Shown: in pieces, positions 5,610-59,375 of the stretch | Position numbering within the stretch: the stretch's first letter is position 1 | How the letters are laid out: each line of letters begins with the position of its first letter | Assembly (NCBI GenBank): GCA_964551485.1 | Contig: CAZKDU010000001.1 | Location: forward strand, 1 to 59,375 | Reading direction: 5' to 3' | Source of the DNA: an uncultured Burkholderiaceae bacterium | Lineage (GTDB): Bacteria; Pseudomonadota; Gammaproteobacteria; Burkholderiales; Burkholderiaceae_C | DNA: 59,375 nucleotides | Program-made: the position numbers and the translations under genes | The notes under the pieces: model-generated | Told to the model about the DNA's origin: nothing | Database searches by the model: none | What the model saw: only the letters and a program-made list of their open reading frames with translations

Positions 5610-5823
5610 GTTTGACTCCTGTTGCCGTCGCAAAAACACTTCACAATCCAAACACCCGGTCCGGACCGGGGCGGGTTCAACGCCATGGCCATGCTGTGTC
5701 TGGCATGGCCTTGCCGATGGCCGTCGATTCTGAAAACCCGGCCTGAAGCCTGCTTGAAGCGCGTCTTCAGCCGGGCTTCATCAAAAACTTTTCCAATCAA
5801 ACGTTCGACACAGGAGTGATGGC

Positions 5824-9102: not shown

Positions 9103-12100
9103 TGCTGGCGCGATTGATTGCCTTCGCCCTGTCGCAGCGGCTGCTGGTGGCCGTGCTCTCGCTCGGGCTGGTGGCCGCCGGTGTACAGGCCCTGCGCTCG
9201 CTGCCGATCGATGCCTTTCCCGACGTCTCCTCGACCCAGGTGAAGATCGTGCTCAAGGCGCCGGGCATGACCCCGTCCGAGGTCGAGACACGCATCGTGG
9301 CGCCGATCGAGCAGGAGCTGCTGGGCATCCCGCGCCAGAAGCTGCTGCGCTCGCAGTCCAAGTACGCCATCGCCGACATCACGCTCGACTTCGAGGACGG
9401 CACCGACATCTACTGGGCGCGCCAGCAGGTCGGTGAACGGCTCAACGGCGTGCTCGGCGACCTGCCGCCGGGCCTGAGCGGGGGCCTGGCGCCCATCACC
9501 ACCCCGCTGGGCGAGATGTTCATGTTCACCCTGGATGGCACGGCCTCGCTGATGGACAAGCGCACCGTGCTCGACACCGTGATCCGCCCGCGGCTGCGCA
9601 GCATCGCCGGGGTGGCCGACGTCAACACCCTGGGCGGCATGGTGCAGACCTTCGAGGTCGTGCCCGATGTCACGGCCCTGGCCGCACGCAGGGTCTCGCT
9701 TGAGCAACTGCAGGCCGCCCTGGCCAGCAACAACCGCAGCGACGGCGCCGGCCGCCTGTCCAGCGGTGAGGAGTCGCTGCTGGTGCGCAGCGACGGCAGC
9801 GTGCGCACGCTCGACGACGTGCGCGCCATCGCCGTGCTGCAGCGCGACGGCCAGGCGGTGCGCGTCGGCGACGTGGCCGAGGTGCGCATCGGCCACCTGA
9901 GCCGCTACGGCAGCGTCACCAAGGACGGCCAGGGCGAGGCCGTGCAGGGCCTGGTGCTGGGCCTGCGCGGCGCCAACGCGCGCGCCGTGGTCGAGCAGGT
10001 CAAGGTGCAGCTTGACACCCTGCAGGCCACCCTGCCCCCGGGCATGGCCATCACGCCCTTCTATGACCGGGGCGACCTGGTCGAGCGCGCCACCGGCACC
10101 GTGGGCAAGGCCCTGGCCGAGGCCATCGCCCTGGTGCTGGTGCTGCTGCTGGTGTTCCTGGGGCACCTGCGCGCGGCCCTCACGGTGTCGTTGATCCTGC
10201 CGCTGTCCGCGCTCGCCACCTTCCTGCTCATGCAGCACGCCGGCCTGTCGGCCAACCTGATGTCCCTGGGCGGCCTGGCCATCGCCATCGGCATGCTGGT
10301 GGACGCCGCGGTGGTGGTGGTGGAAAACATCGTCGCCCGGCAAACCCCGGCGGCCCCGGGCCAGGTGGCGCTGCCGCACCTGCACGCCGTGTACCAGGCC
10401 ACGCGCGAAGTGGCCCTGCCGGTGAGCGCGGGCATGTTCATCATCGTGATCGTTTTCCTGCCCCTGCTCACGCTGCAGGGCCTGGAGGGCAAGCTGTTCG
10501 GCCCGGTCGCACTGACCATCGTGTTCGCCCTGCTGGCCTCGTTGCTGCTGTCGCTGACGGTGATCCCCGTGCTGTCGTCCTGGCTGCTGCGCCCTTCCGG
10601 CACGGCCGAGGCCCACGCCAGCCCGCGCCTGGTGCGCTGGCTCGAACAGCGCTACGCCCCCCTGCTCGACGCCGCCCTGCAGCACGCCCGCGCCGTGGTG
10701 ATCGCGGCCGTGCTGGCCCTGGCTGCGGCCCTGATGCTGTTCCCGTTCATCGGCAAGTCCTTTATGCCGGTGCTCGATGAGGGCGACGTGATCATGCAGA
10801 TCGAGAAGCTGCCCTCGGTCACGCTGGAGCGCTCGATCCAGACCGACCTCGCCGTGCAGCAGCGCCTGCTCAAGGCCGTGCCCGAGGTCAAGAGCATCGT
10901 GGCGCGCGTCGGCTCGGACGAGCTGGGCCTGGACCCGATGGGCCTGAACGAGACCGACACCTTCATGGTGCTCAAGCCACGCAGTGAATGGCGCTTTGCC
11001 GACAAGGCCGAGCTGATCGACGCCCTTCGCGAGGCCGCGGGCACCATCCCCGGCCAGAACCTGAGCTTCACCCAGCCGATCGAAATGCGCACGGCCGAGA
11101 TGCTCTCGGGCGTGCGCGGCGACCTCGCGGTGAAGGTGTTCGGCCCGAACGAGCGCACCCTCACGCAGCTGGCCGAGCAGATCGCCCACACGCTCTCCGG
11201 CCTGCCCGGCAGCGAAGACGTGATCGCCGCCAAGAACGAGGGCGTGCAGTACCTGCGCGTGGACATCGACCGCACGGCCGCCGGGCGCCTGGGGCTCAAC
11301 GCCGAGACCCTGCAGCACGACCTGCGCACCCTGGTCGAGGGCCAGCGCAGCGGCACCGTGCTGCAGGACGCGCGCCGCATCCCCCTGACGCTGCGCGGCC
11401 CCGACAGCCTGCGCATGTCGCCCGAGCTGTTCCAGCAGCTGCGCCTGCCGCAGGCCGACGGCTCCTCGATCCCGCTGAGTGCCGTGGCCCGGCTCGAGGT
11501 CGGCGACGGGCCGGTGCGCATCGAGCGCGAGAACGCCTCGCGCATGGCCGTGGTGCGCGCCAACGTGCGCGGGCGCGACCTGGTGGGCTTTGTGCGCGAC
11601 GCCCAGGCCGCCGTGGCCCAGCAGGTCACGCTGCCTGCCGGCTACCGCCTGACCTGGGGCGGCCAGTTCGAGAACCAGCAACGCGCCGCCGCACGCCTGG
11701 GCCTGGTGGTGCCCGTGGCCCTGGGCCTGATCGTGCTGGTGCTGTTCACCACCCTGGGCTCGCTGCGCCAGGCCATCCTGGTGCTGGCCAACATCCCGTT
11801 CGCCCTGATCGGCGGCATCGCTGCCCTGGCCCTGGCCCGCGAGTATCTGTCGGTGCCGGCCTCGGTGGGCTTCATCGCGCTCATGGGCATCGCCGTGCTC
11901 AACGGCCTGGTGCTGGTCACCTGCTTCAACCAGCTCGCCGCGCGTGGCCTGCCGCTGGACGAGGTGGTGCGCCAGGGCAGCCTGCGCCGCCTGCGCCCGG
12001 TGCTCATGACCGCCAGCATCACGGCGCTCGGCCTGATCCCGCTGCTGCTGGCCAGTGGCCCGGGCTCGGAAATCCAGCGCCCGCTGGCTGTGGTGGTGAT

Positions 12101-41908: not shown

Positions 41909-42814
41909 TCAGCACTTGGCCACCACGGCGGCGTCCACCACCGGGTAGGCGGCCGCGGCGGCGGCGTTCATGGCGCGGGCCAGCAGGTTGTTCACGGCCA
42001 GCGGGTAGCACTGGCTGCGCACGTCGCTGGGCTTGCCGCCGCGCGGCAGGTACACCAGGCGCGCGCGGATGGCGTCGGCCGCGTCGGGGGCGAGCACGTC
42101 GTCCAGCTTGAGGTTGAAGCGGGCAAACTTGTGCTGGATGTAGGCCTCCAGGTCGGCGTCCAGCGGCTGCAGCTCGACCACCTCGCAGCGCTGGGCCACC
42201 TCACGCACCTCGGCGTTTTGGCTGTGCAGGCGCTCGCGCAGCTCGGGCTGGCCCACCAGGGCCACACCGATCAGCCGGCGCAGGCCGTCTTTCAGCTCGG
42301 TGAAGCGCTTGAGGTGCTTGAGCGTGGCCAGCGGCAGGCAGTGGGCCTCTTCGATGAGCAGCAGGTGGTGGCGGCCGCTGCGGCTGCTGGCGCGCAGCAG
42401 CTCGTGCACCTGCCGAAACCGCGCCTCGGGGCTGGACTTGATCTTGAGGTTGGCGTCCAGCGCGGTGGCAATGGCCTCGGCCATGTGGTGGCTCTTGAGG
42501 GTTTTGCCCTTTTGGTCGCTGGCCTCCATGGCCAGCACGTAGGGGCGAATGACCACGATGTCTTCGCGCTCGGCGCGGATGCGCTCCTCCAGGTCTTCGG
42601 CCAGGGTGGACTTGCCGGCACCGCTCTCACCCACCACCGCCAGGAAGCCATGGTGGCGGGCGCAGTCGAGCAGCGAGGCGCGCACGTAGCGGATGCTGTG
42701 CGTCTGGAAGACGTCGTCGCAGGTGGCCACGTCGTCCACAAAGGGGTTGCGTGGCAGGTTGAAGTGCTGGCGCGCCTCCAGGGTGAGCGCGGCGTTTTGC
42801 AGTAGCATGGTCAT
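41909..42814 (-). CDS. MuB-like AAA+ ATPase (transposition target-DNA activator, ExeA/TniB-like)
   Basis: Walker A VVGESGAGKST and Walker B LLLIEEAH. Immediately downstream of the transposase. Start trimmed to the ATG at 42814 (MTMLLQNAAL...). Confidence 0.85.
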   Translation of the reverse strand: MTMLLQNAALTLEARQHFNLPRNPFVDDVATCDDVFQTHSIRYVRASLLDCARHHGFLAVVGESGAGKSTLAEDLEERIRAEREDIVVIRPYVLAMEASDQKGKTLKSHHMAEAIATALDANLKIKSSPEARFRQVHELLRASSRSGRHHLLLIEEAHCLPLATLKHLKRFTELKDGLRRLIGVALVGQPELRERLHSQNAEVREVAQRCEVVELQPLDADLEAYIQHKFARFNLKLDDVLAPDAADAIRARLVYLPRGGKPSDVRSQCYPLAVNNLLARAMNAAAAAAYPVVDAAVVAKC

Positions 42815-42910
42815 GTCCTCTTCTGTTGCTGGTTCAAGTTGCGGGGGTGGATCGGCCTCGGCAGGGTGCGAACCTGCCGGGGCCAACTTCTTTACAGGGG
42901 GCGGCCTGGC

Positions 42911-44695
42911 TCATGACGCGCCCCCACCGGCCACCACGCGCAGGCCGGCGCGCACGGTGAGGCGGTCTGCCAGAGCGGCCAGCTCGGCCTCGGGCACGCC
43001 CTGGGGGTACCAGGCGCGCAGCTGCTCGTTTTTGGCGCGGTCCATGCGGGTGCCCAGGCGGGCCAGCTCGCTGGCGGCCTCGAACAGGCTCAGCACGCGT
43101 GGTGGCAAGGCCGTGAGGCTGGTGGTGACGGCCGGCTGCAGCTCGGTGCCGCGGCGCGGCAGGAAGGTGCGCTCGGGCGCCTGCTCGATGACCTTGAAGG
43201 GGTCCAGCCGGCCACCAAACGGCAGGGCCTGGGCGCGCCGCGCAGCGGCCGCCTCTTCGTTGCTGGCCGCGCCGTAGGTGATGCGATCGACCTCGGCGCG
43301 GTGCTGATCGGCCAGGGTGCTGGGCGCGCGGGCGTAGTCTTCGCCGATGACGTTGGCGTCCACCCGGAAGCCCGAGTCATTGCGCTGCACGGCCGGCACG
43401 GTGTGCAGCAGCTCGTTGCCGTCGCTGTCGGTCAGCACGACCACGGCCGCGTCTGCCTGGTAGGGGTTGCTGGCAATGAGCAGCTTCTCGCCCACCATGA
43501 CGCCGGGCACGCTGCGCACGTCGTACTCGGTGCCGCCGTAGCTCACGCCGAGCGTGGGGCTGACTGTGCGGCGCTCGGGCACCTCGGACACCAGGGCGCG
43601 GCACACCTCGGGCGGCGGGGCCACGCGCAGCTGCTCGGCGCTGATGGTGAGCCACTGCTCATAGCGGGACTTGCCGTGGCGGCTGTGCACCCGCGCGGCG
43701 TTGAACCAGCGCACCCAGCGCTGGGCCTGGGCGTTGAGTTCGGCCAGGCTGGAGACGGGCCGAAAGCGCAGGCTGGACTCGAACCCGCGCTCGATGAGGT
43801 CGCGCGCTTTTTCTACCTGACCAGTGGCACGGGCGTTGCCCGGGGCGTGGGCAATGACCTTGACCTGCAGGCGCCGCGCCAGGTTGCTGAACACCCCGCT
43901 GGTGTTGGCCGAGCCCTGGTCCATCATGAGGATGCGGGGCACGCCGTGAAAGGGGTCGCCTTCGCGCTGGCAGATGGCGTGGATGAAGCTCTCGATGAGG
44001 TTGGCGCTGCTCTCTGCGCCCATGACGTAGTGCACGGCAATGGCGCCGGAGTTGTGGTCTGTGACCTCGTATGACCACACGCGGTCGGCCTCGACCCGCT
44101 TGAGCTGGGCGGGCTTGTTTTTGTAGAAGCGCTCGCGGTCCATCACCTGCAGGCCGGCCTGGGCAGGGTTGGTGGTGTGCAGGTAGTACAGCACGCAGAG
44201 CGAGGCGTCGATCTGCCACACGTGGTTGGGGTGCAGGCTCTGCAGCTCCACGGCCGGGGCCGGGCGGTTGAGCTGGTCGGGGTGCAGGCCGTAGGCGCGC
44301 AGGGCGCTGGCGATGGCGCTGTCGCTCAAGGGCACCAGCTCGCCGGTGGCGGGGTCTGTGCGCTCGGCACGCACTTCGCCGTTGGCGCGCAGCACCTCCA
44401 CCGCCTGGCCGATGCTGAGCAGGCGCTTAGTCGTTTTGCGGTGGCTGGCCATGAGGGCGGCGCTGATGATCAGGGCCTCTTGGCGGTCGAGGGCGAAGCT
44501 GCCGGCGTCTGAGCGCTGTTTGCGCTCGGGCCGCAGGGCCACCTGGCGCAGGTAGCGGTGCAGCGTGGCCGGGCTCTTGATCTGCAGCTCTTGCATGGCC
44601 TGCTGGTAGATGGCTTGCCGGCCGCCGTGCGGGGCCTCTGCCGCGGCCTGGGCCACCTGGCTCAGGCGGGCAATGAGCACGGGGTTGAGGGGCAT
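42911..44695 (-). CDS. Mu-type DDE transposase (MuA-like)
   Basis: N-terminal HTH (SPATLHRYLRQV), rve-type core (HPNHVWQIDASL...IHAICQREGDPFHGVPRILMMDQGSAN...) and a Mu-transposase-like C-terminal region. The GTG at 44755 is an alternative start. Confidence 0.88.
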   Translation of the reverse strand: MPLNPVLIARLSQVAQAAAEAPHGGRQAIYQQAMQELQIKSPATLHRYLRQVALRPERKQRSDAGSFALDRQEALIISAALMASHRKTTKRLLSIGQAVEVLRANGEVRAERTDPATGELVPLSDSAIASALRAYGLHPDQLNRPAPAVELQSLHPNHVWQIDASLCVLYYLHTTNPAQAGLQVMDRERFYKNKPAQLKRVEADRVWSYEVTDHNSGAIAVHYVMGAESSANLIESFIHAICQREGDPFHGVPRILMMDQGSANTSGVFSNLARRLQVKVIAHAPGNARATGQVEKARDLIERGFESSLRFRPVSSLAELNAQAQRWVRWFNAARVHSRHGKSRYEQWLTISAEQLRVAPPPEVCRALVSEVPERRTVSPTLGVSYGGTEYDVRSVPGVMVGEKLLIASNPYQADAAVVVLTDSDGNELLHTVPAVQRNDSGFRVDANVIGEDYARAPSTLADQHRAEVDRITYGAASNEEAAAARRAQALPFGGRLDPFKVIEQAPERTFLPRRGTELQPAVTTSLTALPPRVLSLFEAASELARLGTRMDRAKNEQLRAWYPQGVPEAELAALADRLTVRAGLRVVAGGGAS

Positions 44696-44733
44696 GTCTG
44701 CGTCTGCGGCGGCGGGGAGTGGGCGGCGCGGCT

Positions 44734-45642
44734 TCACTTGGCGGGGCCGAACCACTGGGCCGACTCGGCAAGGCTCTGCAGCTCGGCCGCGTTGCTGACG
44801 TCGGGCAGGCTGAACTCTTCGCGCAGGGCGGCCAGGTCGGCCACCAGCTGGCCCACCAGGCCGGCCATGAAGACCTGCATGTCTGCGCTGCCGCGCTCGG
44901 TGGTGGCGTTGTTGAGCGCAATGAGGGCCTGGCGCATGGTGCCGCGCAGCAGGCCGCTGGCGTCGTGCATGTGGCTGGTGGCCTCTTTTTGCAGGTCGGC
45001 CAGCACCTGGTCGGGCGGCGCGGCCTGGATGCGTTTTTGCGCGGCCTTGAGCTGGTCGATGCGCTTGTTTTTGTCGGCCAGCACTTGCTCGACGGCGGAT
45101 TTTTCTTGGCGGGATTCGCGCAGCGCGCTGCGCAACTCCTTGACAGACATGGTGGCCACGTCGTCCAGGCTCAGCTCACCCGTCTGGCCCGTCAGCACCA
45201 GCTCGTCAATTTCCTCGTTGTCCAGGACGAGCATTTCCAGCAGCTTGGTCTTGCCCAGCGCCTCCAAATGCGAATTCGAATTCGCATTTGAGAACCGGCG
45301 GGTCACCTGCATGTACTGCTGTGCAACGCGTGGCTCCAGGCCCAGACGCGCCAGGCGCTGGACAAAATTGCCGTGCTCACAGGTCTCCCGCAGCAGCAGC
45401 AGGTATCCGCCCAGCTCAAACAAGGCCATGCTGATGCGCCGGCAGGCCTCGCGCGCTCCGTTTTCCAGCGCATCTGGCAACAGCGACCCCTCGTAGCGCA
45501 GCTGTTGTGCCAGTGCGTTCAGGTGTGCTTGCTCTTGGGCGCCCAGGGTGGCCACGGTGTTGAAGTCGGCGCGGACCAGGGCTTCGTTGATGGGCGTGGC
45601 CTTGCTGGCAACGGGAGGGGTGGGTTTGCGTCCTGCGGTCAT
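44734..45642 (-). CDS. DUF3102-like phage/plasmid protein (302 aa)
   Basis: ...GGYLLLLRETCEHGNFVQRLARLGLEPRVAQQYMQV resembles the recalled DUF3102 core. Contains the 26-bp palindrome at 45265-45290. Confidence 0.6.
   Translation of the reverse strand: MTAGRKPTPPVASKATPINEALVRADFNTVATLGAQEQAHLNALAQQLRYEGSLLPDALENGAREACRRISMALFELGGYLLLLRETCEHGNFVQRLARLGLEPRVAQQYMQVTRRFSNANSNSHLEALGKTKLLEMLVLDNEEIDELVLTGQTGELSLDDVATMSVKELRSALRESRQEKSAVEQVLADKNKRIDQLKAAQKRIQAAPPDQVLADLQKEATSHMHDASGLLRGTMRQALIALNNATTERGSADMQVFMAGLVGQLVADLAALREEFSLPDVSNAAELQSLAESAQWFGPAK
45265..45290. repeat. perfect 26-bp palindrome carrying two tandem GAATTC sites
   Basis: CAAATGCGAATTC|GAATTCGCATTTG was checked base by base. 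It is AT-rich and embedded in a GC-rich coding region. Confidence 0.95.
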
Positions 45643-46857: not shown

Positions 46858-47046
46858 TCAACCCTCGGCGGCAGCACTCTTGAGGCCGAGCTTGACCGCG
46901 ATCTCATGGGCCTTGCCATAGTGGCCCTTGTCAAAGCCGTTCAGCACGCGTGATACGCGCTGGGGTGGGAAGCCGTTGTCTCGGGCCCATTGAGAAATGG
47001 TGATCCCTTTGTGACGGAGATTTTTCTTGAATTCCTCGGGGGTCAT
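46858..47046 (-). CDS. ner: Ner-like DNA-binding protein
   Basis: 62 aa. ...ITISQWARDNGFPPQRVSRVLNGFDKGHYGKAHEIAVKLGLK. Divergent from the repressor gene. Confidence 0.8.
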   Translation of the reverse strand: MTPEEFKKNLRHKGITISQWARDNGFPPQRVSRVLNGFDKGHYGKAHEIAVKLGLKSAAAEG

Positions 47047-47141
47047 TGCAGTGACTCCTGTGTTGAAAATTGTTTGAACTAGTTGTTGAGTTGATTATGC
47101 GGCATGTTTGTTCCGCTTTGCAATCACTTTGAGGAAATAAA
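47047..47141. promoter_or_regulatory. divergent promoter/operator (immunity) region
   Basis: 95-bp AT-rich gap between ner (minus) and the repressor (plus). Repeated TGTTG/GTTTG motifs and the palindrome AACTAGTT (47077-47084). GAGGAA precedes the repressor TTG start. Confidence 0.6.
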
Positions 47142-47681
47142 TTGCCTCAAATTGCGGATCGATTGAAGAGCCAGCGCGAGGCGCTGGGTCTCAGCCAGCA
47201 GGCGTTAGCCGAACGGTGTGGGATATCTGCGCGCTCTCAGCGCAACTACGAGTCGGGCGAGCGAGTGCCCGATGCGGACTACCTCAATGCCGTAGCGGCG
47301 GCCGGTGGCGACGTGCTGTATGTGGTGACTGGCGTGCGCTCAGAAGCGCATGCACGCCTGGCCAGCGTGCGCACTGCCGCAGAGATGGCCAAGAAGCTCG
47401 GTGGCACACCCGAGCAGATGGCCAAGACCCAAGAGGCCATCTTCATGCAGCTGATGAGCGCTGAGAAAGCGACTAACCAGTCGCTTTTGCTCACTGCGCC
47501 AGAACAACTGCTGCTGGACGAATACCGAAAGATGAGCCTGGACGAGCAGACCGCGCTGCTGCGCCAGGTGATGACCCGTGGGCAGGCTCAGCCCACTGCA
47601 GGCGCAGAGGCCGTGACGGCCGTGGTCAGCAAGAGCATTTTTGGGTTCTCCTCTGCCAAGGGGAGATCGAAGGGCAAATAG
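47142..47681 (+). CDS. XRE-family prophage repressor
   Basis: N-terminal HTH LKSQREALGLSQQALAERCGISARSQRNYESGERVPDADYL. TTG start. Confidence 0.85.
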   Translation: MPQIADRLKSQREALGLSQQALAERCGISARSQRNYESGERVPDADYLNAVAAAGGDVLYVVTGVRSEAHARLASVRTAAEMAKKLGGTPEQMAKTQEAIFMQLMSAEKATNQSLLLTAPEQLLLDEYRKMSLDEQTALLRQVMTRGQAQPTAGAEAVTAVVSKSIFGFSSAKGRSKGK

Positions 47682-47690
47682 CAGAAGAAC

Positions 47691-48245
47691 GTGCAACAGG
47701 GAGACGATGTGCAACCGGTCAGCGAACAAAAACTCAACATCAGCTCGGTGCAAAACAGTCAGCTCAGCATTGCGCTGAGCGTGGGCGACATTCACCTGTT
47801 TCAGGTGACGCCAGCGCAGGAGCGCCGGCAGATGTTGCAGGCCACCTTGCCCGCCGCCTCATGGCCGCAGGCGGCCTGGCTGCTGGACCACGGCAACATG
47901 GCCAGCGAAGACTTGCTGCGCTGTGTGCAGCGTGGCTATTTGCGGTGGAGCCCGGCCAAGAGCCGGTTGAGCTATGCACACAGCTGGCTGCGCTGTGTGG
48001 CAGTGCTGTTGACCATGGTGGGCGTGGGCTACTTTGCCTGGGCGCTGGCGCACATGGTGTGGCACCACCAGACCCCCATGGACATGCACCGCGTGGGCAC
48101 GGTGGTGGGCCTGGGCGTGCTGCTGGTGCTGATGCTGATGTGGCTGGAGCACCGGGTGATGCGACCGCATGCGCTGGCGGTGCATGCGCATCGGCTGGTC
48201 AAGGGCAAGTACTCAATCAAACAAATCCATCAGGAGCTTTTGTGA
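47691..48245 (+). CDS. hypothetical two-helix membrane protein (184 aa), accessory gene 1
   Basis: ORF track. The GTG at 47709 with GGGAGA upstream is an alternative start. TM helices WLRCVAVLLTMVGVGYFAWALAHMVW and VGTVVGLGVLLVLMLMWL. Confidence 0.6.
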   Translation: MQQGDDVQPVSEQKLNISSVQNSQLSIALSVGDIHLFQVTPAQERRQMLQATLPAASWPQAAWLLDHGNMASEDLLRCVQRGYLRWSPAKSRLSYAHSWLRCVAVLLTMVGVGYFAWALAHMVWHHQTPMDMHRVGTVVGLGVLLVLMLMWLEHRVMRPHALAVHAHRLVKGKYSIKQIHQELL

Positions 48246-48250
48246 CCGAT

Positions 48251-49189
48251 ATGGCCACCCTGCTATGGATTGCTGTCGCTGCCCTATCGGGCTTCGTGTT
48301 GCTGAGAATCGTCCGTAAATCCAAGGCTTATCAGGGCGAGCAGAAGGTTCATGGCTGGCTACCCGACTCTGATAGCAGCCCAGGCACATCGCTTTCGTCA
48401 GCCGCATCGATTGCGATGCCAGATGGCTGGAAATCCGATGCTTTCCAATTCGATGATGCGTACAGATCTTCATTCGATCTGGTGGTGAAAGAGATCACAG
48501 GTGAAGCCATTGACCTGGCGCCACTCATGAAGGTACGCGAAGAGATTCTTGGACTCAATGGAAATCCCGCAGAGCAGGCAAAGATCATCATGCAAGCGCT
48601 GGCTGGACAAGCCTGGGACTGGCCTCGGTATGCGAGCCACGAAATGGGTGAAACCATCATTCAAATCTGCGCGGCGTTTAGTTCTATGCCTGTTGATGAG
48701 GTGCTGAGTTTCTGTACGGTGGCTGAACTCAAAACACTCTGCTCACTGCATGGCCTTGCGAGAGGGGCAAGGAAGAAGGAGGAATTTGTCCAGGCCCTTT
48801 TGAAAGCGGACCAGAGCGTGTGGGGTCCGTTGATGACTGAGACATTGAGTGCAAAACGAGAAATGTCATTGCACCGCTGCAGGAAAAAAATGGCCAAAAT
48901 GCTCACCTGTAGAGTGAGTGCGGTTGCTTACAACCAATGGCGGGTGAAGGAACTCATCGGCCTTGCCGAACATGGGTATCTAACCCACTGGAGGCTTCAT
49001 CGCCCTGAACTAGACGGGCCTGTCGCAGAGTGCGGCTGGAAAACCGATGCCTGCCTGCACTTCAAGCAGGCCATTCATGAGTTCCCAGAATTGCCATGTG
49101 CATCACTTCGATGTGACTGCAGGATTGTTGCGCTGAGCCCTAGAGAGGCGAGGAAAATCGGCCTGGGCAAGAAATCAGCCAACCTCTGA
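48251..49189 (+). CDS. hypothetical membrane-anchored protein (312 aa), accessory gene 2, low GC
   Basis: In-frame ATG at 48251 of the 47861..49189 ORF. Anchor LLWIAVAALSGFVLLRIV followed by RKSK. SAP-like VAELKTLCSLHGLARGARKKEEFVQALLK. C-terminal Cys/His cluster. GC is clearly below that of its neighbours. Confidence 0.65.
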   Translation: MATLLWIAVAALSGFVLLRIVRKSKAYQGEQKVHGWLPDSDSSPGTSLSSAASIAMPDGWKSDAFQFDDAYRSSFDLVVKEITGEAIDLAPLMKVREEILGLNGNPAEQAKIIMQALAGQAWDWPRYASHEMGETIIQICAAFSSMPVDEVLSFCTVAELKTLCSLHGLARGARKKEEFVQALLKADQSVWGPLMTETLSAKREMSLHRCRKKMAKMLTCRVSAVAYNQWRVKELIGLAEHGYLTHWRLHRPELDGPVAECGWKTDACLHFKQAIHEFPELPCASLRCDCRIVALSPREARKIGLGKKSANL

Positions 49190-49227
49190 AGCTCTCCCTT
49201 TAGAACTTCACGCGCGCGCACGGCAAA

Positions 49228-49563
49228 GTGCCGCGCATGAACCGACCTCAACTCCTCCAATTCCTGCAGCGCGCCCCGCGCATGTCTGACTGGCTGGCAG
49301 CGGCTGTGCTGCTGGCCGTGGTCATCTGGCTGATTGCCCCGCAGCAGCTGCCGGTGAGCCTTTACAAGCTGAGCCTGGTCGCCATGGCGGCGGTGGTGGG
49401 CTACTGGATCGACCGCTCGCTGTTCCCCTACGCCCGGCCCGACGCGCTGCTGGAGTCTCTGGAGAACGAGGACGACACGCTGCTGCGCCTGGTGGGCACG
49501 TGCATGCTGCGCCGCGCGGTGATCGTGGCGGCGGTGGTGGTGGCCGTGAGCCTGGGGGCCTGA
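49228..49563 (+). CDS. putative holin (three hydrophobic segments)
   Basis: 111 aa, directly upstream of the SLT endolysin. The ATG at 49237 is an alternative to the GTG at 49228. Confidence 0.5.
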   Translation: MPRMNRPQLLQFLQRAPRMSDWLAAAVLLAVVIWLIAPQQLPVSLYKLSLVAMAAVVGYWIDRSLFPYARPDALLESLENEDDTLLRLVGTCMLRRAVIVAAVVVAVSLGA

Positions 49564-50684: not shown

Positions 50685-51040
50685 CGGTGCAGCTGGAGCT
50701 GTGGCACGTGCTGAGCCTGGGCGTGACGATCATCGGTGGCTACTGGGCGGTGGCCAAGCTGCTGGCCAGCCAGGCCAAAAGCAGCCTGGACCTGCGTTTT
50801 GCCGCGGTGACGGAGGGGCTGGGCCGCATTGAGCGGGCGCGCAGCGATGACCGCAGCGAGCTGAACCAGCTGCACCGCGATTTCATGGAGTTCAAGGTGC
50901 ACTTGCCCTTGCATTACGTGCAGCGCGAGGACTACGTGCGCGGCCAGAGCGTGATCGAGGCCAAGCTGGACAGCCTGGCCGTGAAGCTGGAGAACGTGCA
51001 GCTGCGCTCGGCACTGAATTCCAAGGGAGAGGGCCCATGA
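50681..51040 (+). CDS. DUF2730-like phage protein
   Basis: ATG at 50681 overlaps the Rz1 stop. N-terminal TM then coiled coil. The position before the terminase genes matches Mu-like phages. Confidence 0.55.
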   Translation: MTVQLELWHVLSLGVTIIGGYWAVAKLLASQAKSSLDLRFAAVTEGLGRIERARSDDRSELNQLHRDFMEFKVHLPLHYVQREDYVRGQSVIEAKLDSLAVKLENVQLRSALNSKGEGP

Positions 51041-51345
51041 ACATTGACCAGGCCAAGATTCGCCGTGAGGCGCTGCGCTGGCTGATTTTGCTGACGCTGA
51101 ACAACGCGCGGCCCATGGGCGCCTACGAGAGTGTGGTGCTGGCGGTGGCGCAAAGCGAGTACCCGGACGCCACCCCGCTGGAGCTGCGGCGCGAGCTGGA
51201 CTACCTGGAGGAGCGCGAGCTTGTGAAGCTGCGCAAGGAGCCCAGCGGCCGCTGGCACGCGGAGCTGACGCGCTGCGGCATTGACGTGGCCGAGTACACG
51301 GTGGAGTGCGATCCGGGCATTGCGCGCCCGGTGAAGTACTGGTGA
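51037..51345 (+). CDS. small winged-helix-like phage protein (102 aa)
   Basis: ORF track. 4-nt overlap upstream. ...LRRELDYLEERELVKLRKEPSGRWHAELT... Confidence 0.5.
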   Translation: MNIDQAKIRREALRWLILLTLNNARPMGAYESVVLAVAQSEYPDATPLELRRELDYLEERELVKLRKEPSGRWHAELTRCGIDVAEYTVECDPGIARPVKYW

Positions 51346-53331: not shown

Positions 53332-54831
53332 ATGGCAAACCAACTGACTCAGCACATTGCCAGCCGCGCGCGGAGCACGGATTTCGTGTTCATGGGCATG
53401 CTGCTGCCCAACCCGGACCCGATCTTGAAGGCGCAGGGCCGAGACATTCGGGTGTACCGTGACATGCGCTCGGACGCGCTGATTGGCGGGAGCATTCGCC
53501 GCCGCAAGAGCGCGGTGAAGGCCCTGGACAACGGGGTGGACCGTGGCCGCTCGGCCAGCCGCGTGACCAAGGCGGTGCAGGAGATGCTGCAAGGCCTGGA
53601 CCTGGATGGGCTGATTGGCGACACGCTGAACGCGTGCTTTTACGGCTACCAGCCCCTGGAGGTGATGTGGGAGCGGCGCGGCGCCATGCTGGTGCCGGCC
53701 AGTGTGGTGGCCAAGCCGCCGGAGTGGTTTGGGTTTGACGCGGACAATTTGCTGCGCTTCAAGTCGCGCGAAGCGCTGCTGCACGGCGAGGAGCTGCCGC
53801 CGCGCAAGTTCTTGCTGCCGCGGCAAGAGCCCACTTACACCAACCCCTATGGCTTGCCCGACCTGAGCATGTGCTTCTGGCCCCTGGTATTCAAGAAGGG
53901 GGGCATGAAGTTCTGGCTGGCCTTTGTGGAGAAGTACGGCAGCGCGTTTGCCTTGGGCAAGCTGCCCAGGGGGGCGTCGGACAAGGACCGCACGCTGTTG
54001 CTGGACAGCCTTGAGGCGTTGATCCAGGACGGGGTGGCCACGATTCCCGACGATGGCAGTGTGGAGCTGCTGGAGATGGCGGGCAAGAGCGCCAGCTCTG
54101 ACTTGCACCAGGCGCTGGTGATGCACTGCCGGGGCGAGATTTCGATTGCGCTGCTGGGCCAGAACCAGACAACGGAGGCGAGCGCGAACAAGGCCAGCGC
54201 CACGGCCGGCCTGGAGGTGACGGAGGACCTGCGCGACGCGGACGCGAAGCTGGTGGCGGCGACGGTGAATGAGCTGATCAAGTGGTTCTGCGAGCTGAAC
54301 TTTGCGAGTGTGCTGCCGCCGGTGTTCAGCCTGTGGGACCAGGAGGCGCAGGACCGGCTGCAGGCCGAGCGGGACAAGAGCAACTACGCGGCGGGCGCGC
54401 GTTTCACGAACGCGTATTTCATGCGCGCCTACGGCTACCAGGAGGGTGACTTGCAGTACCAGGCACCGGGGGGCACCACGCCCTTGGCGTCTGCGGCCGG
54501 CGGCCGGGTGGTACCGGCGGCAGAGCCGGAGCAGGACGCGGCCGCGTTTGCCGAGGCCGCGCTGCAGGTGGCTGGCGCAGACCCCATGGCGGCCGAGGTG
54601 GATGAGCTGGCGGCCGCTGCGGCGCCGAGCTGGACGGGCATGGTGCGCCAGCTGGAGGCGCTGGTGGCAAGGGCGGAGTCGATGGAGCAGCTGCAGGCGG
54701 CGCTGCTGTCGGCCTACGGCGGTGCACCCGAGCTGACCCGTGTCATGGGCGCGGCCATGGCGCTGGCGGAACTGCGCGGCATGGCGGCGGTGCAGGCCGA
54801 GTCGGGTGATGATGGAGCGGCCGGTGCCTGA
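53332..54831 (+). CDS. portal protein (DUF935, Mu gp29-like)
   Basis: 499 aa. Position and sequence (...YGYQPLEVMWE...FKKGGMKFWLAFVEKYG...) fit Mu-type portals. Confidence 0.9.
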   Translation: MANQLTQHIASRARSTDFVFMGMLLPNPDPILKAQGRDIRVYRDMRSDALIGGSIRRRKSAVKALDNGVDRGRSASRVTKAVQEMLQGLDLDGLIGDTLNACFYGYQPLEVMWERRGAMLVPASVVAKPPEWFGFDADNLLRFKSREALLHGEELPPRKFLLPRQEPTYTNPYGLPDLSMCFWPLVFKKGGMKFWLAFVEKYGSAFALGKLPRGASDKDRTLLLDSLEALIQDGVATIPDDGSVELLEMAGKSASSDLHQALVMHCRGEISIALLGQNQTTEASANKASATAGLEVTEDLRDADAKLVAATVNELIKWFCELNFASVLPPVFSLWDQEAQDRLQAERDKSNYAAGARFTNAYFMRAYGYQEGDLQYQAPGGTTPLASAAGGRVVPAAEPEQDAAAFAEAALQVAGADPMAAEVDELAAAAAPSWTGMVRQLEALVARAESMEQLQAALLSAYGGAPELTRVMGAAMALAELRGMAAVQAESGDDGAAGA

Positions 54832-56026
54832 ACCCGGGTTTGACGTGGGGTTCAACACCCCATGGGAGCCACAGATTGCGTTTCTGCGCAACAAGCTGCG
54901 GTTGCCCAGCGAGCGTTGGGACGACATTCAGCGCAGCGCGCATGACCGGGCCTTCATGGTGGCCGGGGCGGTGCAGGCGGACTTGCTGGCAGACCTGCAC
55001 CAGGCGGTGACGCAGAGCATTGCCGAGGGCACCGGGCTGGAGGCGTTTCGGCGTGATTTCAAGGAGATTGTGGCCAGGCGCGGCTGGACGGGATTCACCG
55101 GCAGCGACAGCCAAGCTGGGCTGGCCTGGCGGACACGGGTGATCTACCAGACCAACCTGAGCACGAGCTATGCGGCCGGGCGGTACAAGCAGCTGACCGA
55201 GCCCGGGTTTGCAAAGCTCAACCCGTATTGGCGCTACCTGCACAATGACTCGGTGCTGCACCCGCGGCCGCAGCACGTGGCCTGGCATGGCCTGACGCTG
55301 CCGCGCGAGCACGCTTTCTGGGCGGCCCACTTTCCGCCCAATGGCTGGGGGTGCCAGTGCCGGGTGACGGCGGTGAGCCGGCGCGAGGGCGAGGCGAGTG
55401 CGCGCGCCGGGGTTGGGGAACCGCCCGAGGGCTGGAACACGCGCGATGGCAAAACCGGGGCGCCGGTTGGAATCGACCGGGGGTTCGACTACACGCCTGG
55501 CGCGAGCGTGGACACGTCGCTGCGGCAGTTGGTGCAGGACAAGCTGATCACGTACCCGCCGGCCATTGCGACAGCGCTCTCGCGCGACGTGACCCGCTAC
55601 CTGAATGCCACGGACGCGCCGGCGGCCTTTGTGGCCAAAGCGCTGGCCGACAAGCAGCTGGTGGAGACGCTGTGGATGGGCTTTGTGGAGGACCCGAAGC
55701 GGCTGAGCCAGGTGCTGGGGCAGGACGTGACGGGCTATCTGGTGACGCTGCCGGCCGAGGCAGCGCGCCATGTGGAGGCCAGCCATGGCATGGATGGGGG
55801 CACGCAGCGGGCGCCTGCGCCTGAGGACTTCAACCGGTTGATGGAGGTGCTGAACGGGGCCGACAGCATCAAGCCAGGGAATGCCACCTCATCCACCGGT
55901 GATCCACGGGTGGTGGTGACGAAAGCCATTGGTGCTGAGGAGTTCAGGGCCGTGTTCGAGCTGCGGCCGGGCAAAAAAAACAGGGCCTTGGCCCTGCTTT
56001 CGTTCGTGGTGAAAGTCACGCAATGA
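54809..56026 (+). CDS. head morphogenesis protein (MuF / SPP1 gp7 family) with a C-terminal extension
   Basis: ...NPYWRYLHNDSVLHPRPQHVAWHGLTLP...FPPNGWGCQCRV (MuF core), plus about 100 extra C-terminal residues. ATG at 54809 within the 54740 ORF. Confidence 0.88.
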   Translation: MMERPVPEPGFDVGFNTPWEPQIAFLRNKLRLPSERWDDIQRSAHDRAFMVAGAVQADLLADLHQAVTQSIAEGTGLEAFRRDFKEIVARRGWTGFTGSDSQAGLAWRTRVIYQTNLSTSYAAGRYKQLTEPGFAKLNPYWRYLHNDSVLHPRPQHVAWHGLTLPREHAFWAAHFPPNGWGCQCRVTAVSRREGEASARAGVGEPPEGWNTRDGKTGAPVGIDRGFDYTPGASVDTSLRQLVQDKLITYPPAIATALSRDVTRYLNATDAPAAFVAKALADKQLVETLWMGFVEDPKRLSQVLGQDVTGYLVTLPAEAARHVEASHGMDGGTQRAPAPEDFNRLMEVLNGADSIKPGNATSSTGDPRVVVTKAIGAEEFRAVFELRPGKKNRALALLSFVVKVTQ

Positions 56027-56136: not shown

Positions 56137-56670
56137 ATGACAAGTTTCACCCTGCAGGTTCACGACAAGCTGGTTCGTGACGCCCTGTCCAGGTTGCAGG
56201 CCAGGCTCGAGCAGGCCCAGCCGGTGCTGGAGAGCATTGGCGAGCACTCGGTGGAGCGCATCAAGCGCCGGTTCGAGACCAGCTCGGCCCCGGACGGCAC
56301 GCCCTGGAAGCCCAACAGCCAGTCCACCCTCGACCAGGTCGCCAGCCGCCTGGGGAAGTCGTTCAGGAAAAAGGGTGGTGCGCTCAACGCGAAGGGGCAG
56401 GCCCGGGTGACCGGCAAGAAGCCGCTGATCGGCGAATCGCGGGCGCTGAGCACGCAGATCGTGCGCTTCACCAGCCAGGACAGCCTGACCGTGGCCAGCA
56501 CGCCCATCTACGCTGCGATCCAGCACCTGGGAGGCCAAGCCGGCCGTGGCGGCAAGGTGACGATCCCGGCCCGGCCCTTCATGCCCATCATGCCGGACGG
56601 CCAGCTCTACCCCGAGGAGCGGGACGCGATTCTGCTGGACCTTAACAACTACCTCGCCGACCTCGTTTGA
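56137..56670 (+). CDS. virion morphogenesis protein (Mu G / gp31-like)
   Basis: 177 aa. ...FETSSAPDGTPWKPNS...PLIGESRAL...IYAAIQHLGGQAGRGGKVTIPARPF... AAGAGGAG RBS. Confidence 0.85.
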   Translation: MTSFTLQVHDKLVRDALSRLQARLEQAQPVLESIGEHSVERIKRRFETSSAPDGTPWKPNSQSTLDQVASRLGKSFRKKGGALNAKGQARVTGKKPLIGESRALSTQIVRFTSQDSLTVASTPIYAAIQHLGGQAGRGGKVTIPARPFMPIMPDGQLYPEERDAILLDLNNYLADLV

Positions 56671-56783
56671 GGCCAGAATAGGGGCCTCCAGCCCTCCGCC
56701 GGGCGTTCCGCCGGTGTGTTTCGCGTGAGAAAAGTGTTTTTCGGAGGCCCGTCCCGATTTTTCCCATCAAGGCCCCCAAAATC

Positions 56784-56796
56784 CCCATTTATTGCA
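56784..56796. repeat. candidate prophage terminus (head-gene side), ...CA-3'
   Basis: CCCATTTATTGCA is the reverse complement of TGCAATAAATGGG. Preceded internally by the direct repeats GTGTTTCGCG (56716-56725) and GTGTTTTTCGG (56734-56744). Confidence 0.45.
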
Positions 56797-56991
56797 CCGA
56801 TCCCCCTTGGAATATCTCAATACCCGTCACCTGGGGGTGGTCTACCTGGGCACCCCCCACCTGCCCCTGCCCGCCGGCCGGCCTGTGCACGGCCAGTGGA
56901 CGCCGCCGCCCTCCGCCCCCAGCCCAGGCCCGGTGGTCTGGTCGTTTGTCCTGCCGCCCCATGCCTGCATCCAGGCCCAGGGGGGCGGACG

Positions 56992-57870
56992 GTGAACGCA
57001 CGCGACCTGAGCCTGCCCCCACCCGCCGCCGCCAGCCCGACCCGTGCCAGCGGGCGCGTGGCCGTGGTGCTGCTGCACGGCCTGTGCAGCACGCCGGACG
57101 AGTTGCTCTCGGTGCACAGCGGCCTGCGCGGCGCCGGCCACAGCACCCACGCGCTGCTGATCCCCGGCTACTCCTACGACCGCACTGCCACACGCCAGCG
57201 CGCCAGCCGCTTCGAGACCTGGGTCGACCAGGTCGAGGACTGCGTGCGGACCCTGCGCCAGACCCACGCCCGGGTGGTGCTGGTCGGCCTGTCGGCCGGC
57301 ACCTCGCTGGCCCTGGCCAGTGTGCTGCGCGGCTGCCCGGTCGACGGCCTGGTGCTGCTGTCCACCAGCCTGGTCTACGACGGCTGGGCCATCCCGCGCC
57401 ACCACGTTCTGCTGCCGCTGGCGCTGTACACCCCGATCGGGCGCCTGTGGCGCTACCGGGAGCGACCGCCCTACGGCGTGAAAAACGAGCGCGTGCGCGC
57501 CTGGATCGCCCACGAACTGGCCGAGCGCCAGGTGTCCAGCGCCGGCGCCGCCGTGCTCGGCGTGGACCACCTGCGCGAGCACGACCGCATGAACCGCCAC
57601 GTGCGCCGCCGCCTGCCCGGCATGGCCTGCCCGCCGGTGCTGGCCCTGCACGCCCGCGACGACGAGGTCACCAGCCCGGCCAACGTGGCGCTGCTGCAGC
57701 GCCACCTGAGCTGCCCCGCCTTCACCAGCGTGCTGCTCGACCACAGCTACCACATGATCACCCTGGACAACGACCGCCGCGAGGTGGTGCGGCACTGCCT
57801 GGCCTTCGTGCACGGCATCGACCAGGCGCTGGCCACGCCGGCGCCCCGGCCGGCCGCAGCGGTCCTGTGA
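56992..57870 (+). CDS. alpha/beta hydrolase (esterase/lipase-like)
   Basis: GTG at 56992 within the 56716 ORF. VAVVLLHGLCSTPDEL..., nucleophile elbow VGLSAGTSLAL, ...HSYHMITLD. Confidence 0.8.
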   Translation: MNARDLSLPPPAAASPTRASGRVAVVLLHGLCSTPDELLSVHSGLRGAGHSTHALLIPGYSYDRTATRQRASRFETWVDQVEDCVRTLRQTHARVVLVGLSAGTSLALASVLRGCPVDGLVLLSTSLVYDGWAIPRHHVLLPLALYTPIGRLWRYRERPPYGVKNERVRAWIAHELAERQVSSAGAAVLGVDHLREHDRMNRHVRRRLPGMACPPVLALHARDDEVTSPANVALLQRHLSCPAFTSVLLDHSYHMITLDNDRREVVRHCLAFVHGIDQALATPAPRPAAAVL

Positions 57871-57934
57871 CCCGTGCGCGTCTGTGCCCTCTCCCGCTTC
57901 CCCCACTTGTTTGCCTGACCCGGTTCCCCTGCCC

Positions 57935-58192
57935 ATGAGCGACGCCATCTACCCCCAACTCTGCACCCTGCTGCACGAGCGCTTCCAGCTCGACCCGGCC
58001 CAGTTCAGCCCCGAGCACAGGCTCGAAGACCTGGGCCTGGACTCCCTGGCCCTCATGGAGTTCGTGTTCGCCGTGGAGGACCATTTCCAGCTGCGCATCC
58101 CCGAAGACCAGCTCGACCCGCGCCAGGCAGGCCACACCCTGGACCACCTGAGCACGGTCATCGCCGGCGTGGTGGGCGCCGCACCGCGCTGA
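57935..58192 (+). CDS. acyl carrier protein
   Basis: 85 aa. Phosphopantetheine attachment motif EDLGLDSLALMEF. Confidence 0.85.
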   Translation: MSDAIYPQLCTLLHERFQLDPAQFSPEHRLEDLGLDSLALMEFVFAVEDHFQLRIPEDQLDPRQAGHTLDHLSTVIAGVVGAAPR

Positions 58193-58197
58193 GCCCC

Positions 58198-59375
58198 ATG
58201 GCCCACGAGGACGTCCACATCACCGGCCAGGGCCTGGTCTCGCCACTGGGCCACACACTGGCCGGTTTCCACGAGGCCCTGTTCGCCGGCCGCTCGGCCG
58301 TGGCCGCGCGCACGCTGGCCGTGCCCGGGCTCGACCCCGTGGCCCTGCCCGTGGCCGCCTGCGCCTTCGACGAGCGCCAGGTCCGCCCGCCCTCGCGCGT
58401 GCCGGCCGACCGCGGCACCTCCATGGCCCTGCAGGCCGCCGCCGACGCCATGGCCATGGCCGGGCTGGGCGCGGGTACACACGACCCCGACCGCCTGGGC
58501 GTGTACTGGGGCACCGGCATGGGCGGCGCCGCCACCTTCGACGCCACCTGCCAGGCCCTGTACGCGGAGCAGCGGCGCATGCGCCCCACCACCGTCATCA
58601 CCACCATGCCCAACGCCGCGCTGGGCGAGCTGGCCCTGCAGTTCCAGGCGCGCGGCAGCGCGCTCGGCTACACCTGCGCCTGCGCCTCCTCGGCCGTGGC
58701 CATCGGCGAGGCCCTGCGTGCCTTGCGCGGCGGCTGGATCGACGTGGCCCTGGTCGGTGGCCACGAGGCCATGCTCAGCCCCGGCGTCCTGGCCAGCTGG
58801 CAGGCGCTGCGTGTGCTGGCGCCGGCGGCCGACGACGCGGCACGCGCCTGCCGCCCCTTCGCCCAGGACCGCGCCGGCTTCGCGCTCGGCGAGGGCGCGG
58901 CCGCGCTGGTGCTGGAGTCGGCGCGCCACGCCCGCGCGCGGCGCGGCCTCGCCACTGCGCCTGCTGGGCTACGCCAGCACCTGCGACGCCAGCCACATCA
59001 CCCACCCGGACCCGGCCGGCCAGGCCCGGGCCCTGCGCCTGGCCCTGCACGACGCCGGGCTGGCACCGCAGGACGTCGGCCACGTCAACGCCCACGGCAC
59101 CGCCACCCAGGCCGGCGACGCGGCCGAGGCGGCCTCGCTGGCCCAGGTGTTCGGCGAGCACGCGCCCGCCGTCTGCTCGACCAAGGCCATCCACGGCCAC
59201 CTGCTGGGCGCCGGCGGCGCGATGGAGCTGCTGGCCACCCTGGCCGCGCTCACACACGGGCGCGTGCCGCCCACTGCCCACCTGGACCGGCCCGACCCGG
59301 CCCTGGCCGCGCTCGACCTGGTGCGCGGCGCAAGCCGGCCCGCGCCCGGCCTGCGCCATGCGCTGTCGAACTCGT
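58198..59375 (+). pseudogene. beta-ketoacyl-ACP synthase (KAS I/II family) with an apparent frameshift near 58938. The 3' end lies outside the window.
   Basis: Frame 1 reads ...GYTCACASSAVAIGEA...GEGAAALVLESARHARA. After the GC-repeat at 58931-58947 the KAS sequence continues in another frame (RGAASPLRLLGYASTCDASHITHPDPAGQ...VNAHGTATQAGD...TKAIHGHLLGAGGAME). Confidence 0.75.

Follow-up and report, generated by a model that had tools for sequence, protein, structure and literature searches.

Gene organization and composition of the repressor-to-holin interval

We analyzed a 59,375-nucleotide (nt) stretch of DNA from an uncultured Burkholderiaceae bacterium (contig CAZKDU010000001.1), referred to here as the window, which carries a BcepMu-like transposable prophage, and focused on two open reading frames (ORFs) between the prophage repressor gene and the holin gene. 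As an earlier note on this DNA had described, ORF1 (47691-48245, 184 amino acids, aa) and ORF2 (48251-49189, 312 aa) lie on the same strand as the repressor with gaps of only 9 and 5 nt, and the lysis cassette starts at 49228 with a gene that matches Holin_2-3. The observations reported here are best explained if ORF2 is an accessory ("moron") gene that moves independently and has been inserted into the repressor-to-holin slot. The descriptive part of this account, namely gene structure, composition, family membership, homology to the phage MuF core and to the helix-extended-helix (HeH) motif, recurrent position and mobility, is held with high confidence. The features are collected in Table 1.

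Table 1. Features of the repressor-to-holin interval and its borders in the window
Feature	Position	Strand	Evidence
ORF2, foreign composition, rare undescribed MuF-core family	48251..49189	+	33 relatives; family alignment A1; AlphaFold2 model
ORF2 N-terminal membrane anchor (predicted), residues 4-21, and RKSK, residues 22-25	48260..48325	+	Topology prediction; AlphaFold2 model
ORF2 WDWP motif (W122, W124), family signature (WDWPxW)	48614..48625	+	Conservation in A1
ORF2 HeH/SAP-like helix-extended-helix motif, residues 148-187	48692..48811	+	Family-level matches
ORF2 predicted MuF/SPP1-gp7-type core, residues 223-304, four conserved Cys (C261, C283, C288, C290)	48917..49162	+	hhalign; Pfam on relatives; BFVD
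ORF1, 178 aa (or 184 aa counted from GTG 47691), N-terminal half cytoplasmic, followed by a hairpin of two transmembrane (TM) segments (nt 47985-48062, 48093-48146)	47709..48245	+	Native-like composition
Xre/cI-type prophage repressor, BcepMu gp17 homologue	47142..47681	+	HTH_3 E 1.8e-10; phmmer against BcepMu gp17 E 2e-17
Conserved holin leader, two hairpins	49185..49241	+	RNA fold -25.7 kcal/mol, z -4.07
Holin, first lysis-cassette gene, right border of cargo slot	49228..49563	+	Holin_2-3 E 5e-26; phrog_1528 E 5e-34
Sigma-70-like early promoter, TTGCAA-18-CATAAT, in 95-nt divergent control region	47094..47123	-	Promoter scan
Ner-like early regulator, first gene of leftward early/transposition operon	46858..47046	-	phrog_925 E 3.8e-27; HTH_35

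The earlier note had viewed the interval as a low-GC two-gene cassette. This description holds for ORF2, which is compositionally foreign (GC 0.53; GC at third codon positions, GC3, 0.58) in keeping with the horizontal acquisition that had been proposed, but not for ORF1, which is native-like (GC 0.63, GC3 0.83, GC at second codon positions, GC2, 0.40) beside a phage backbone with GC3 of 0.83-0.91 in the transposase, holin, terminase and portal genes. The composition break falls at the ORF1/ORF2 junction. Since only ORF2 is foreign, the GC minimum of the window represents ORF2 together with slightly low immunity genes and is not a homogeneous two-gene block. The length of the ORF2 frame is beyond chance, as none of 2000 shuffles of the region reached its 313 stop-free codons. 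For ORF1, shuffling provides only a weak test (40 of 2000) because the region is short and GC-rich, and support for ORF1 as a real gene comes instead from its codon-position GC and from one homologue.

Both start codons are open to revision. ORF1 probably starts at GTG 47709, which is preceded by a GGGAGA Shine-Dalgarno sequence and agrees with its only database copy, P0001. ORF2 may start at GTG 48242, within a GTGA overlap with the ORF1 stop and with AGGAG 5 nt upstream, to give a protein of 315 aa. A 442-aa frame (47861-49189) extending ORF2 upstream over ORF1 was rejected as a high-GC artefact based on the family alignments and the position of the anchor, leaving 48242 or 48251 as the real start. 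ORF2 is absent from both large protein collections, though ORF1 of the same contig is present; it was apparently missed by gene callers, probably due to its atypical composition.

ORF2 represents a rare family with a predicted MuF-type core

Direct scans of ORF2 against Pfam, PHROGs, PADLOC and NCBIfam returned only a sub-threshold FANC_SAP match. Word-indexed homology searches produced no match for ORF2, with the profile version yielding only P0027, and scans of IMG/VR with ORF1 and ORF2 gave no match. Among 50,697 phage records searched with blastn and tblastn, the only matches were to holin DNA, with no protein match to either ORF. An exhaustive phmmer search of 1.84 billion representative proteins identified 33 relatives of ORF2, 12 of which scored E<=1e-10, covering residues ~65-300. 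The resulting ORF2-family alignment (A1) is the basis of the conservation counts and profile searches described below. In A1, W124, C261, C283 and C288 are invariant while R221, C290 and W122 are near-invariant (W122 in at least 90%), and the C-terminal block reads RYEQL..P..PyWrF...aPkxC...G.vLP...A...FPxLPCxxLxCxCRI. A loose DNA motif derived from this block, FPxLPCxxLxCxC, gave 12 matches in IMG/VR, all of them false positives, and a stricter two-anchor motif search found only one genome locus and three metagenome loci. The ORF2 family is rare and unannotated, with no Pfam, PHROG, NCBIfam or PADLOC model and no match in the phage records. The alignment also enabled structural modeling, with AlphaFold2 reaching a predicted local distance difference test (pLDDT) score of 82.4 and a predicted TM-score (pTM) of 0.72 with A1, compared to an unusable pLDDT of 45.6 from the single sequence.

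The N-terminal anchor followed by RKSK that the earlier note had recognized is confirmed, and the predicted topology is N-out/C-in with the bulk of the protein in the cytoplasm. An anchor with basic residues as in ORF2 is present in 8 of the 33 relatives, one relative carries a soluble ~150-aa extension and the rest begin at the core. Most relatives are soluble proteins of about 240 aa. The positive-inside pattern, together with the four conserved Cys, suggests a cytoplasmic, probably zinc-binding body. The SAP/HeH stretch likewise lies where it had been placed, and the motif is upheld at the family level. The match of ORF2 itself is below the Pfam threshold (FANC_SAP 15.7 bits against a cut-off of 23, E 0.018; SAP E 0.2), and within the family HeH is matched by 3 of 28 relatives (best E 2.1e-5), SAP by 2 and Rho_N by 2. 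The A1 profile matches the SAP domain of Ku70 (1jjr, E 2e-4) and FluMu gp35 (2out, E 1.2e-3), and a fold search of the Protein Data Bank with the ORF2 model gave weak best matches that were all FAN1, in the SAP region.

That no family could be recognized for ORF2, as the earlier note stated, is true for the direct scans, but family profiles revealed remote MuF homology. The C-terminal Cys/His cluster is located as originally described, although only C261, C283, C288 and C290 are conserved in the family and the histidines and C268 are not. Three independent lines (Pfam on the relatives, hhalign and BFVD folds) identify this Cys cluster as the predicted core of the MuF/gp7 head-morphogenesis domain. 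First, Phage_Mu_F directly matches 4 of 28 relatives with a best E of 6.1e-11. Second, hhalign matched A1 to the MuF protein of the window itself (96.6%, E 5.8e-10) and to an alignment of four Mu-type MuF proteins (97.3%, E 2.3e-11), with ORF2 residues 223-304 aligned to MuF residues 140-221 including the PyWrF and CxC-R motifs. Third, the top matches of the ORF2 model in a Foldseek search of BFVD were almost all head-morphogenesis, minor capsid or MuF-like proteins, at weak E-values of 3e-3 to 8e-2 and a best TM-score of 0.52 (target); no solved MuF structure was found by sequence. The MuF identity of the Cys cluster, which the earlier note had missed, changes the likely mechanism of ORF2.

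The C-terminal ~80 residues of ORF2 thus align with the MuF core of phage Mu gpF and SPP1 gp7 (Phage_Mu_F, PF04233), yet the protein differs clearly from a canonical MuF. It is encoded outside the head module, between repressor and holin, and coexists with a canonical MuF (54740-56026) located after the portal. It lacks the MuF C-terminal domain and adds the HeH/SAP motif, the WDWPxW signature, a fourth Cys and, in the family, often a membrane anchor. It is also compositionally foreign and falls below Pfam thresholds. ORF2 is a new architectural variant on a known domain, in the known niche of a moron slot beside an immunity gene, and is not a canonical MuF, Rex or PADLOC component. Such a variant could also be imagined as a decaying, functionless remnant of a captured MuF gene, which would be compatible with its foreign composition and its uncalled status in the protein collections. 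We consider this very improbable, as the 312-codon frame is intact and unequalled in the shuffles, the invariant and near-invariant family residues are all kept, the AlphaFold2 model is confident and a plausible Shine-Dalgarno sequence and start codon are present.

The ORF2 family recurs behind Mu-like repressors and in other mobile settings

Members of the ORF2 family are located downstream of a Mu-like repressor in eight independent loci (the window, L024, L029, L031, L033/34, L037, L030 and L039). In L033/34, L037, L030 and L039 only 6-137 nt separate the gene from the repressor immediately before it, while in L031, L024 and L029 it follows one to three small genes and in the window it follows ORF1. 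In L035/36, a relative is located in the late head operon between gpG and the protease. In Pseudomonas Mu-like phages, this G/I head-gene slot is the site of anti-CRISPR genes. GC3 of the family member is below the median of its neighbours in 9 of 9 loci measured, and is the lowest of all genes in L029, L033 and L035. Each phage examined (the L033-L037 loci and the window) already has a canonical MuF.

Two further settings lack any visible phage context. In L041, the ORF2 relative and its neighbour are bracketed by three 66-nt imperfect palindromes with CCTAAC...GTTAGG ends (115-180, 1335-1400 and 1715-1780; hairpin z of -2.2 to -4.0), and L026-28 harbor a 96-nt element with GCATAAC...GTTATGC ends in two copies (L026 1516-1611 and 2145-2240), one of which lies 3' of the ORF2 relative while the pair brackets the next gene. 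Judged against the attC pattern of imperfect palindromes with RYYYAAC / GTTRRRY ends, the repeats in L041 and L026 look like integron attC sites, which suggests that the ORF2 family also travels as integron cassettes. The short L041 and L026 contigs showed neither an integrase nor phage genes, and attC-like repeats are not represented among the Rfam models. The L041 cassette seems to contain a second ORF, which lies on the minus strand (197-607, ~110 aa). Integron cassettes of unknown function have been reported to encode phage defences (bioRxiv 10.1101/2024.07.02.601719).

The neighbours of the family members are also informative. In three loci, a pair consisting of a ~300-aa protein and a ~190-aa multi-TM protein lies directly 3' of the ORF2 relative. 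The L024 pair (9985-11551) is PDC-M53A/B, a PADLOC candidate system (E 6e-32 and 7e-61), the L023 pair (1267-2733) is DUF4747+TM and the L031 pair (5747-7166) is DUF6731+TM. Defence candidates therefore share the slot, and these three pairs may be analogous defence modules of the same prophage slot. In PADLOC-DB v2, there was no match for ORF1, ORF2 or P0002, and the neighbours of P0002 match PDC-M53A/B.

Alternatively, ORF2 could act inside the phage particle. As an accessory virion-internal protein, ORF2 would be loaded via the portal by its MuF core, bind the packaged DNA end through its HeH motif and, after ejection, protect or pilot the DNA or counter defence while its hydrophobic N-terminus enters the target membrane. 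Portal-mediated capsid targeting is the known role of MuF/gp7 (PMC6316719, PMC5512222), most relatives are soluble, one relative sits between gpG and the protease in the head operon and ORF2 adjoins the lysis/late region. A virion role is nonetheless quite unlikely, considering that the window protein and 8 of the 33 relatives have a positive-inside membrane anchor unfit for a capsid passenger, that the gene lies directly 3' of the repressor in four loci, that relatives occur in attC-like cassettes on short contigs where no phage genes were seen, and that a canonical MuF is already in place in each phage.

The repressor-to-holin interval is a variable cargo slot

The element carrying ORF1 and ORF2 is a BcepMu-like transposable prophage, with a leftward Ner/transposase/MuB-like operon and a rightward series comprising repressor, lysis, TerS/TerL, Portal_Mu, MuF and gpG genes. 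The leftward order is Ner-like gene (46858-47046), orf168, orf108, a 302-aa gene, transposase (42911-44755) and AAA_22 MuB-like ATPase (41909-42886). The rightward order is repressor, slot, Holin_2-3, SLT endolysin, Rz, two small genes, TerS-like, TerL, portal (53332-54831), MuF and gpG/Phage_tail_S (56137-56670). The order of the window genes is the same as that of BcepMu gp16-gp28, where gp16 is Ner-like, gp17 the repressor, gp18-gp20 hypothetical, gp21 the holin and gp22 SLT.

The interval from repressor to holin serves in these elements as a variable cargo slot, as the earlier note had guessed, and its contents are often low in GC. In 10 Mu-like contigs from IMG/VR with related repressors (N-terminal domains 62-76% identical to that of the window), the slots hold other genes, including several low-GC inserts (0.51-0.55 versus 0.62-0.65), and no ORF1 or ORF2 relatives were found among them. 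Nor was the ORF2 family found in BcepMu or KS10, where the slot is occupied by different and often low-GC genes. Between the repressor and holin of KS10 lie two hypothetical genes (11 and 12) with GC contents of 53.5% and 54.9% (PMC2628397). BcepMu gp18-gp20 and KS10 gp11-gp12 share the slot and orientation of ORF1 and ORF2, but have no detectable sequence relationship to either; BcepMu gp18 contains a TM segment and overlaps the repressor stop codon.

Scans of the plus strand from the repressor start to the holin revealed neither a promoter nor an intrinsic terminator, and no such element dedicated to ORF2 or any relative was identified. At the right border, the second hairpin of the holin leader sequesters the holin start codon (GUG 49228 / AUG 49237), and homology to the holin-upstream DNA of L006, L031 and L037 resumes exactly at the ORF2 stop codon. 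The leader may act in translational or transcriptional control of lysis. This layout, together with the short gaps of 9-27 nt and the possible GTGA overlap, fits ORF1 and ORF2 being carried on the repressor transcript, with the lysis cassette under its own leader, and in the lysogen ORF2 and the repressor most likely share a transcript.

The close linkage to the repressor across many Mu-like prophages, the proximity to the lysis cassette with its conserved leader and the DNA-binding motif in ORF2 could also point to a non-defence housekeeping factor of the lysogen or phage, for example a membrane-tethered DNA-binding modulator of repressor stability, transposition, packaging site choice or lysis timing. 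We regard this as fairly unlikely. A core regulatory gene is expected to be conserved and compositionally ameliorated, whereas the family is patchy (absent from BcepMu, KS10 and the 10 related contigs), is persistently atypical in GC and occurs also in another slot and in attC-like cassettes outside phages.

ORF1 is not an obligate partner of ORF2

The two hydrophobic helices that had been noticed in ORF1 are confirmed at residues 99-124 and 135-152. In the word-indexed search, the only database match for ORF1 was itself, P0001. One relative was identified in L029, a 177-aa protein that shares the two-TM topology of ORF1, is 27% identical to it over 108 aa including non-TM stretches (E about 1e-6) and is encoded by a gene overlapping the stop codon of the repressor. 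Two other genes separate this protein from the ORF2 relative of L029. When the 5284 ORFs of all loci, L031 and L032 among them, were searched with a hidden Markov model (HMM) built from ORF1 and the L029 relative, no further match was obtained. Small membrane proteins do however occur directly 5' of anchor-less ORF2 relatives, with two TM segments in L031 and L032 and one in L024, L029 and L026. A MAFFT alignment was suggestive of homology between ORF1 and the two-TM proteins of L031 and L032, but the HMM misses them and they are considered analogous only. Membrane association, either in cis or via a neighbour, is thus a recurring theme of the ORF2 family. The one-TM protein is homologous between L024 (8867-9190) and L029 (2952-3185; E 6e-9), and the L024 copy has an N-terminal zinc-ribbon.

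These observations do not sustain the claim of a two-gene, two-component cassette, as the composition of the two genes differs, ORF2 relatives mostly occur without an ORF1 relative and the family stands alone in the attC-like cassettes. The earlier note had taken ORF1 and ORF2 for a two-component exclusion or abortive-infection system that possibly couples DNA sensing to a membrane effector. In a RexAB-like form of this model, ORF2 would sense phage DNA by its SAP/HeH motif and activate the membrane effector ORF1, leading to cell collapse. Lambda RexAB shares with the present locus the position of its genes behind the repressor and a presumed membrane component. The GTGA overlap may couple translation of the two ORFs, ORF1 has two TM segments, anchor-less ORF2 relatives in L024, L031, L032 and L026 are immediately preceded by small membrane proteins, and L029 harbors relatives of both. 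However, there is no homology to RexAB, nor similarity to Rex or any PADLOC defence model, ORF1 has 2 TM segments rather than 4, and ORF2 has its own anchor along with a putatively virion-protein-derived domain. RexAB-type genes would always be found together, one of them a polytopic channel, and ORF1 and ORF2 do not co-occur across loci. A relative of ORF1 was found in only one other ORF2 locus, where the pair is split by two other genes, and in L033, L037, L030 and L039 ORF2 relatives occur without a membrane partner. With the differing compositional histories of the two genes and the failure of the HMM to find further ORF1 relatives, a Rex-like pair is unlikely. We instead view ORF1 as a separate, compositionally native two-TM immunity-region protein that may cooperate with ORF2 but is not its obligate partner.

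A role for ORF1 as a lysis regulator or antiholin found no support, as it has no lysis-family match in Pfam or PHROGs and is not located beside the holin. The first post-repressor gene of several BcepMu-like phages starts with a beta-strand-like, Gly-rich motif (for example SVGDIHLFQV, SVAGRDIVNVNHG, GQVAGGDIHNYG) that is often followed by TM segments. It was seen in the window at 47739-47804 (ORF1 residues ~17-38), at the N-terminus of BcepMu gp18 (L038), in L029 at 1618-1700 and 2191-2260 and in L001 at 6440-6560, as well as at the C-termini of some repressors.

A possible role for ORF2 in interference with phage assembly

A strong interaction with the portal oligomer directs SPP1 gp7 to the procapsid, and MuF domains are reused to load capsid cargo (PMC6316719, PMC5512222). 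By analogy, ORF2 may be a membrane-tethered mimic of the portal-binding MuF, co-expressed with the repressor. At the membrane, such a mimic would attach to the portal of a superinfecting and especially Mu-like phage, or to its portal-DNA packaging complex. This capture could prevent head assembly or packaging, or it could act as the sensing step in an exclusion response. A decoy or sensor would be the simplest explanation for the combination of the MuF core, the tether, the repressor-downstream site, the family's own mobility, the attC-like cassettes and the defence-candidate neighbours. The occurrence of relatives in the G/I slot and in attC-like cassettes without nearby phage further argues for a host-beneficial, autonomous function. 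We propose this assembly-interference or defence mechanism tentatively, as a possibility that falls short of probable. Somewhat more doubtful is the broader proposition that ORF2 is the first member of a new class of anti-phage proteins borne by prophages and integrons, in which a membrane-tethered or free MuF-core decoy with an HeH motif would capture the portal/packaging complex and abort head assembly or DNA packaging, with expression from the repressor transcript sparing the induced resident phage.

Several points weigh against such a mechanism. ORF2 itself has no Phage_Mu_F match at E<=1 and reaches no Pfam threshold, its MuF sequence homology spans only ~80 residues, and its Foldseek matches combine poor E-values (3e-3 at best) with low TM-scores. 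An anchor is missing from 25 of the 33 relatives, the relative of L035/36 inside the late head operon also fits a virion role, and the 38-nt gap between ORF2 and the holin leaves room for late co-expression. ORF2 has neither a PADLOC match nor a recognisable effector domain. Portal binding by the MuF core alone is assumed from SPP1 gp7, and a decoy would be expected to interfere also with assembly of the resident prophage unless it were switched off or circumvented on induction.

The mechanism proposed for ORF2 does have conceptual parallels. The prophage protein Tab of P. aeruginosa defends by blocking virion (tail) assembly (PMC10884400), and the Tai systems (PMC11364771) share with Tab and with the proposal for ORF2 the concept of a constitutive prophage protein that interferes with assembly of the invader's virion. 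Tab and Tai target tail assembly and are unrelated in sequence, whereas targeting of the head or portal by ORF2 would follow only from its MuF-core ancestry. Genes in the repressor transcript of the Pseudomonas Mu-like phage Fc02 exclude superinfecting phages (PMC9936078). Its olg1 and gene 10 are small exclusion genes that a transposable phage carries on its lysogenic repressor transcript, as proposed for ORF2, but they are located upstream of the repressor, are much smaller and are not known to be related to ORF2. Accessory use of the MuF module in prophages is also seen in the MuF-toxin polymorphic toxins of temperate phages (PMC5576092). In contrast to ORF2, which lacks a toxin domain and has its MuF core at the C-terminus, these carry an N-terminal MuF and a C-terminal toxin, have a neighbouring immunity gene and reside in the head module.

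If the proposed function is true, ORF2 would exemplify defence by molecular mimicry of a head-assembly factor, extending assembly-blocking defences from tails to portals and heads, and phages would be recycling their own structural domains as weapons against relatives. Regardless of function, the analysis defines a rare unannotated family, maps a repressor-to-holin cargo hotspot in BcepMu-like transposable phages that is also home to candidate defence pairs, and indicates that low-GC cargo like ORF2 can escape gene callers.

Additional features of the window and related prophages

The early promoter of the divergent control region has counterparts at the equivalent place in L033 and L039, where a TTGACA-17/18-CATAAT motif is present (11/12 matches), and homologues of the Ner-like gene adjoin the repressor in L001-L010, L024, L029 and L039. 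Beyond gpG, the window (56671-59375) consists of DNA with 74-80% GC, with no similarity to Mu-type protease or scaffold and no clear coding frame. In L033 (19155-21200), gpG is likewise followed by non-phage-looking genes (PP_kinase_C/PLD-like and Ppx-GppA). This could reflect truncation of the two prophages at an identical point, or else large cargo in the G/I slot.

The slot of related Mu-like prophages recurrently contains a DUF4124-like lipoprotein (AINKC.GPDGKV.FQD.PC) that is absent from the window, with copies in L031 (5198-5740), L001 (6871-7401), L006 (3361-3999) and L008 (6432-6857). The gene directly after the repressor in L024 (8437-8793) is paralogous to the conserved small gene that precedes TerS (orf102 in the window, 51037-51345; phmmer E 8e-16), indicating that a late-region gene was duplicated into the immunity slot.

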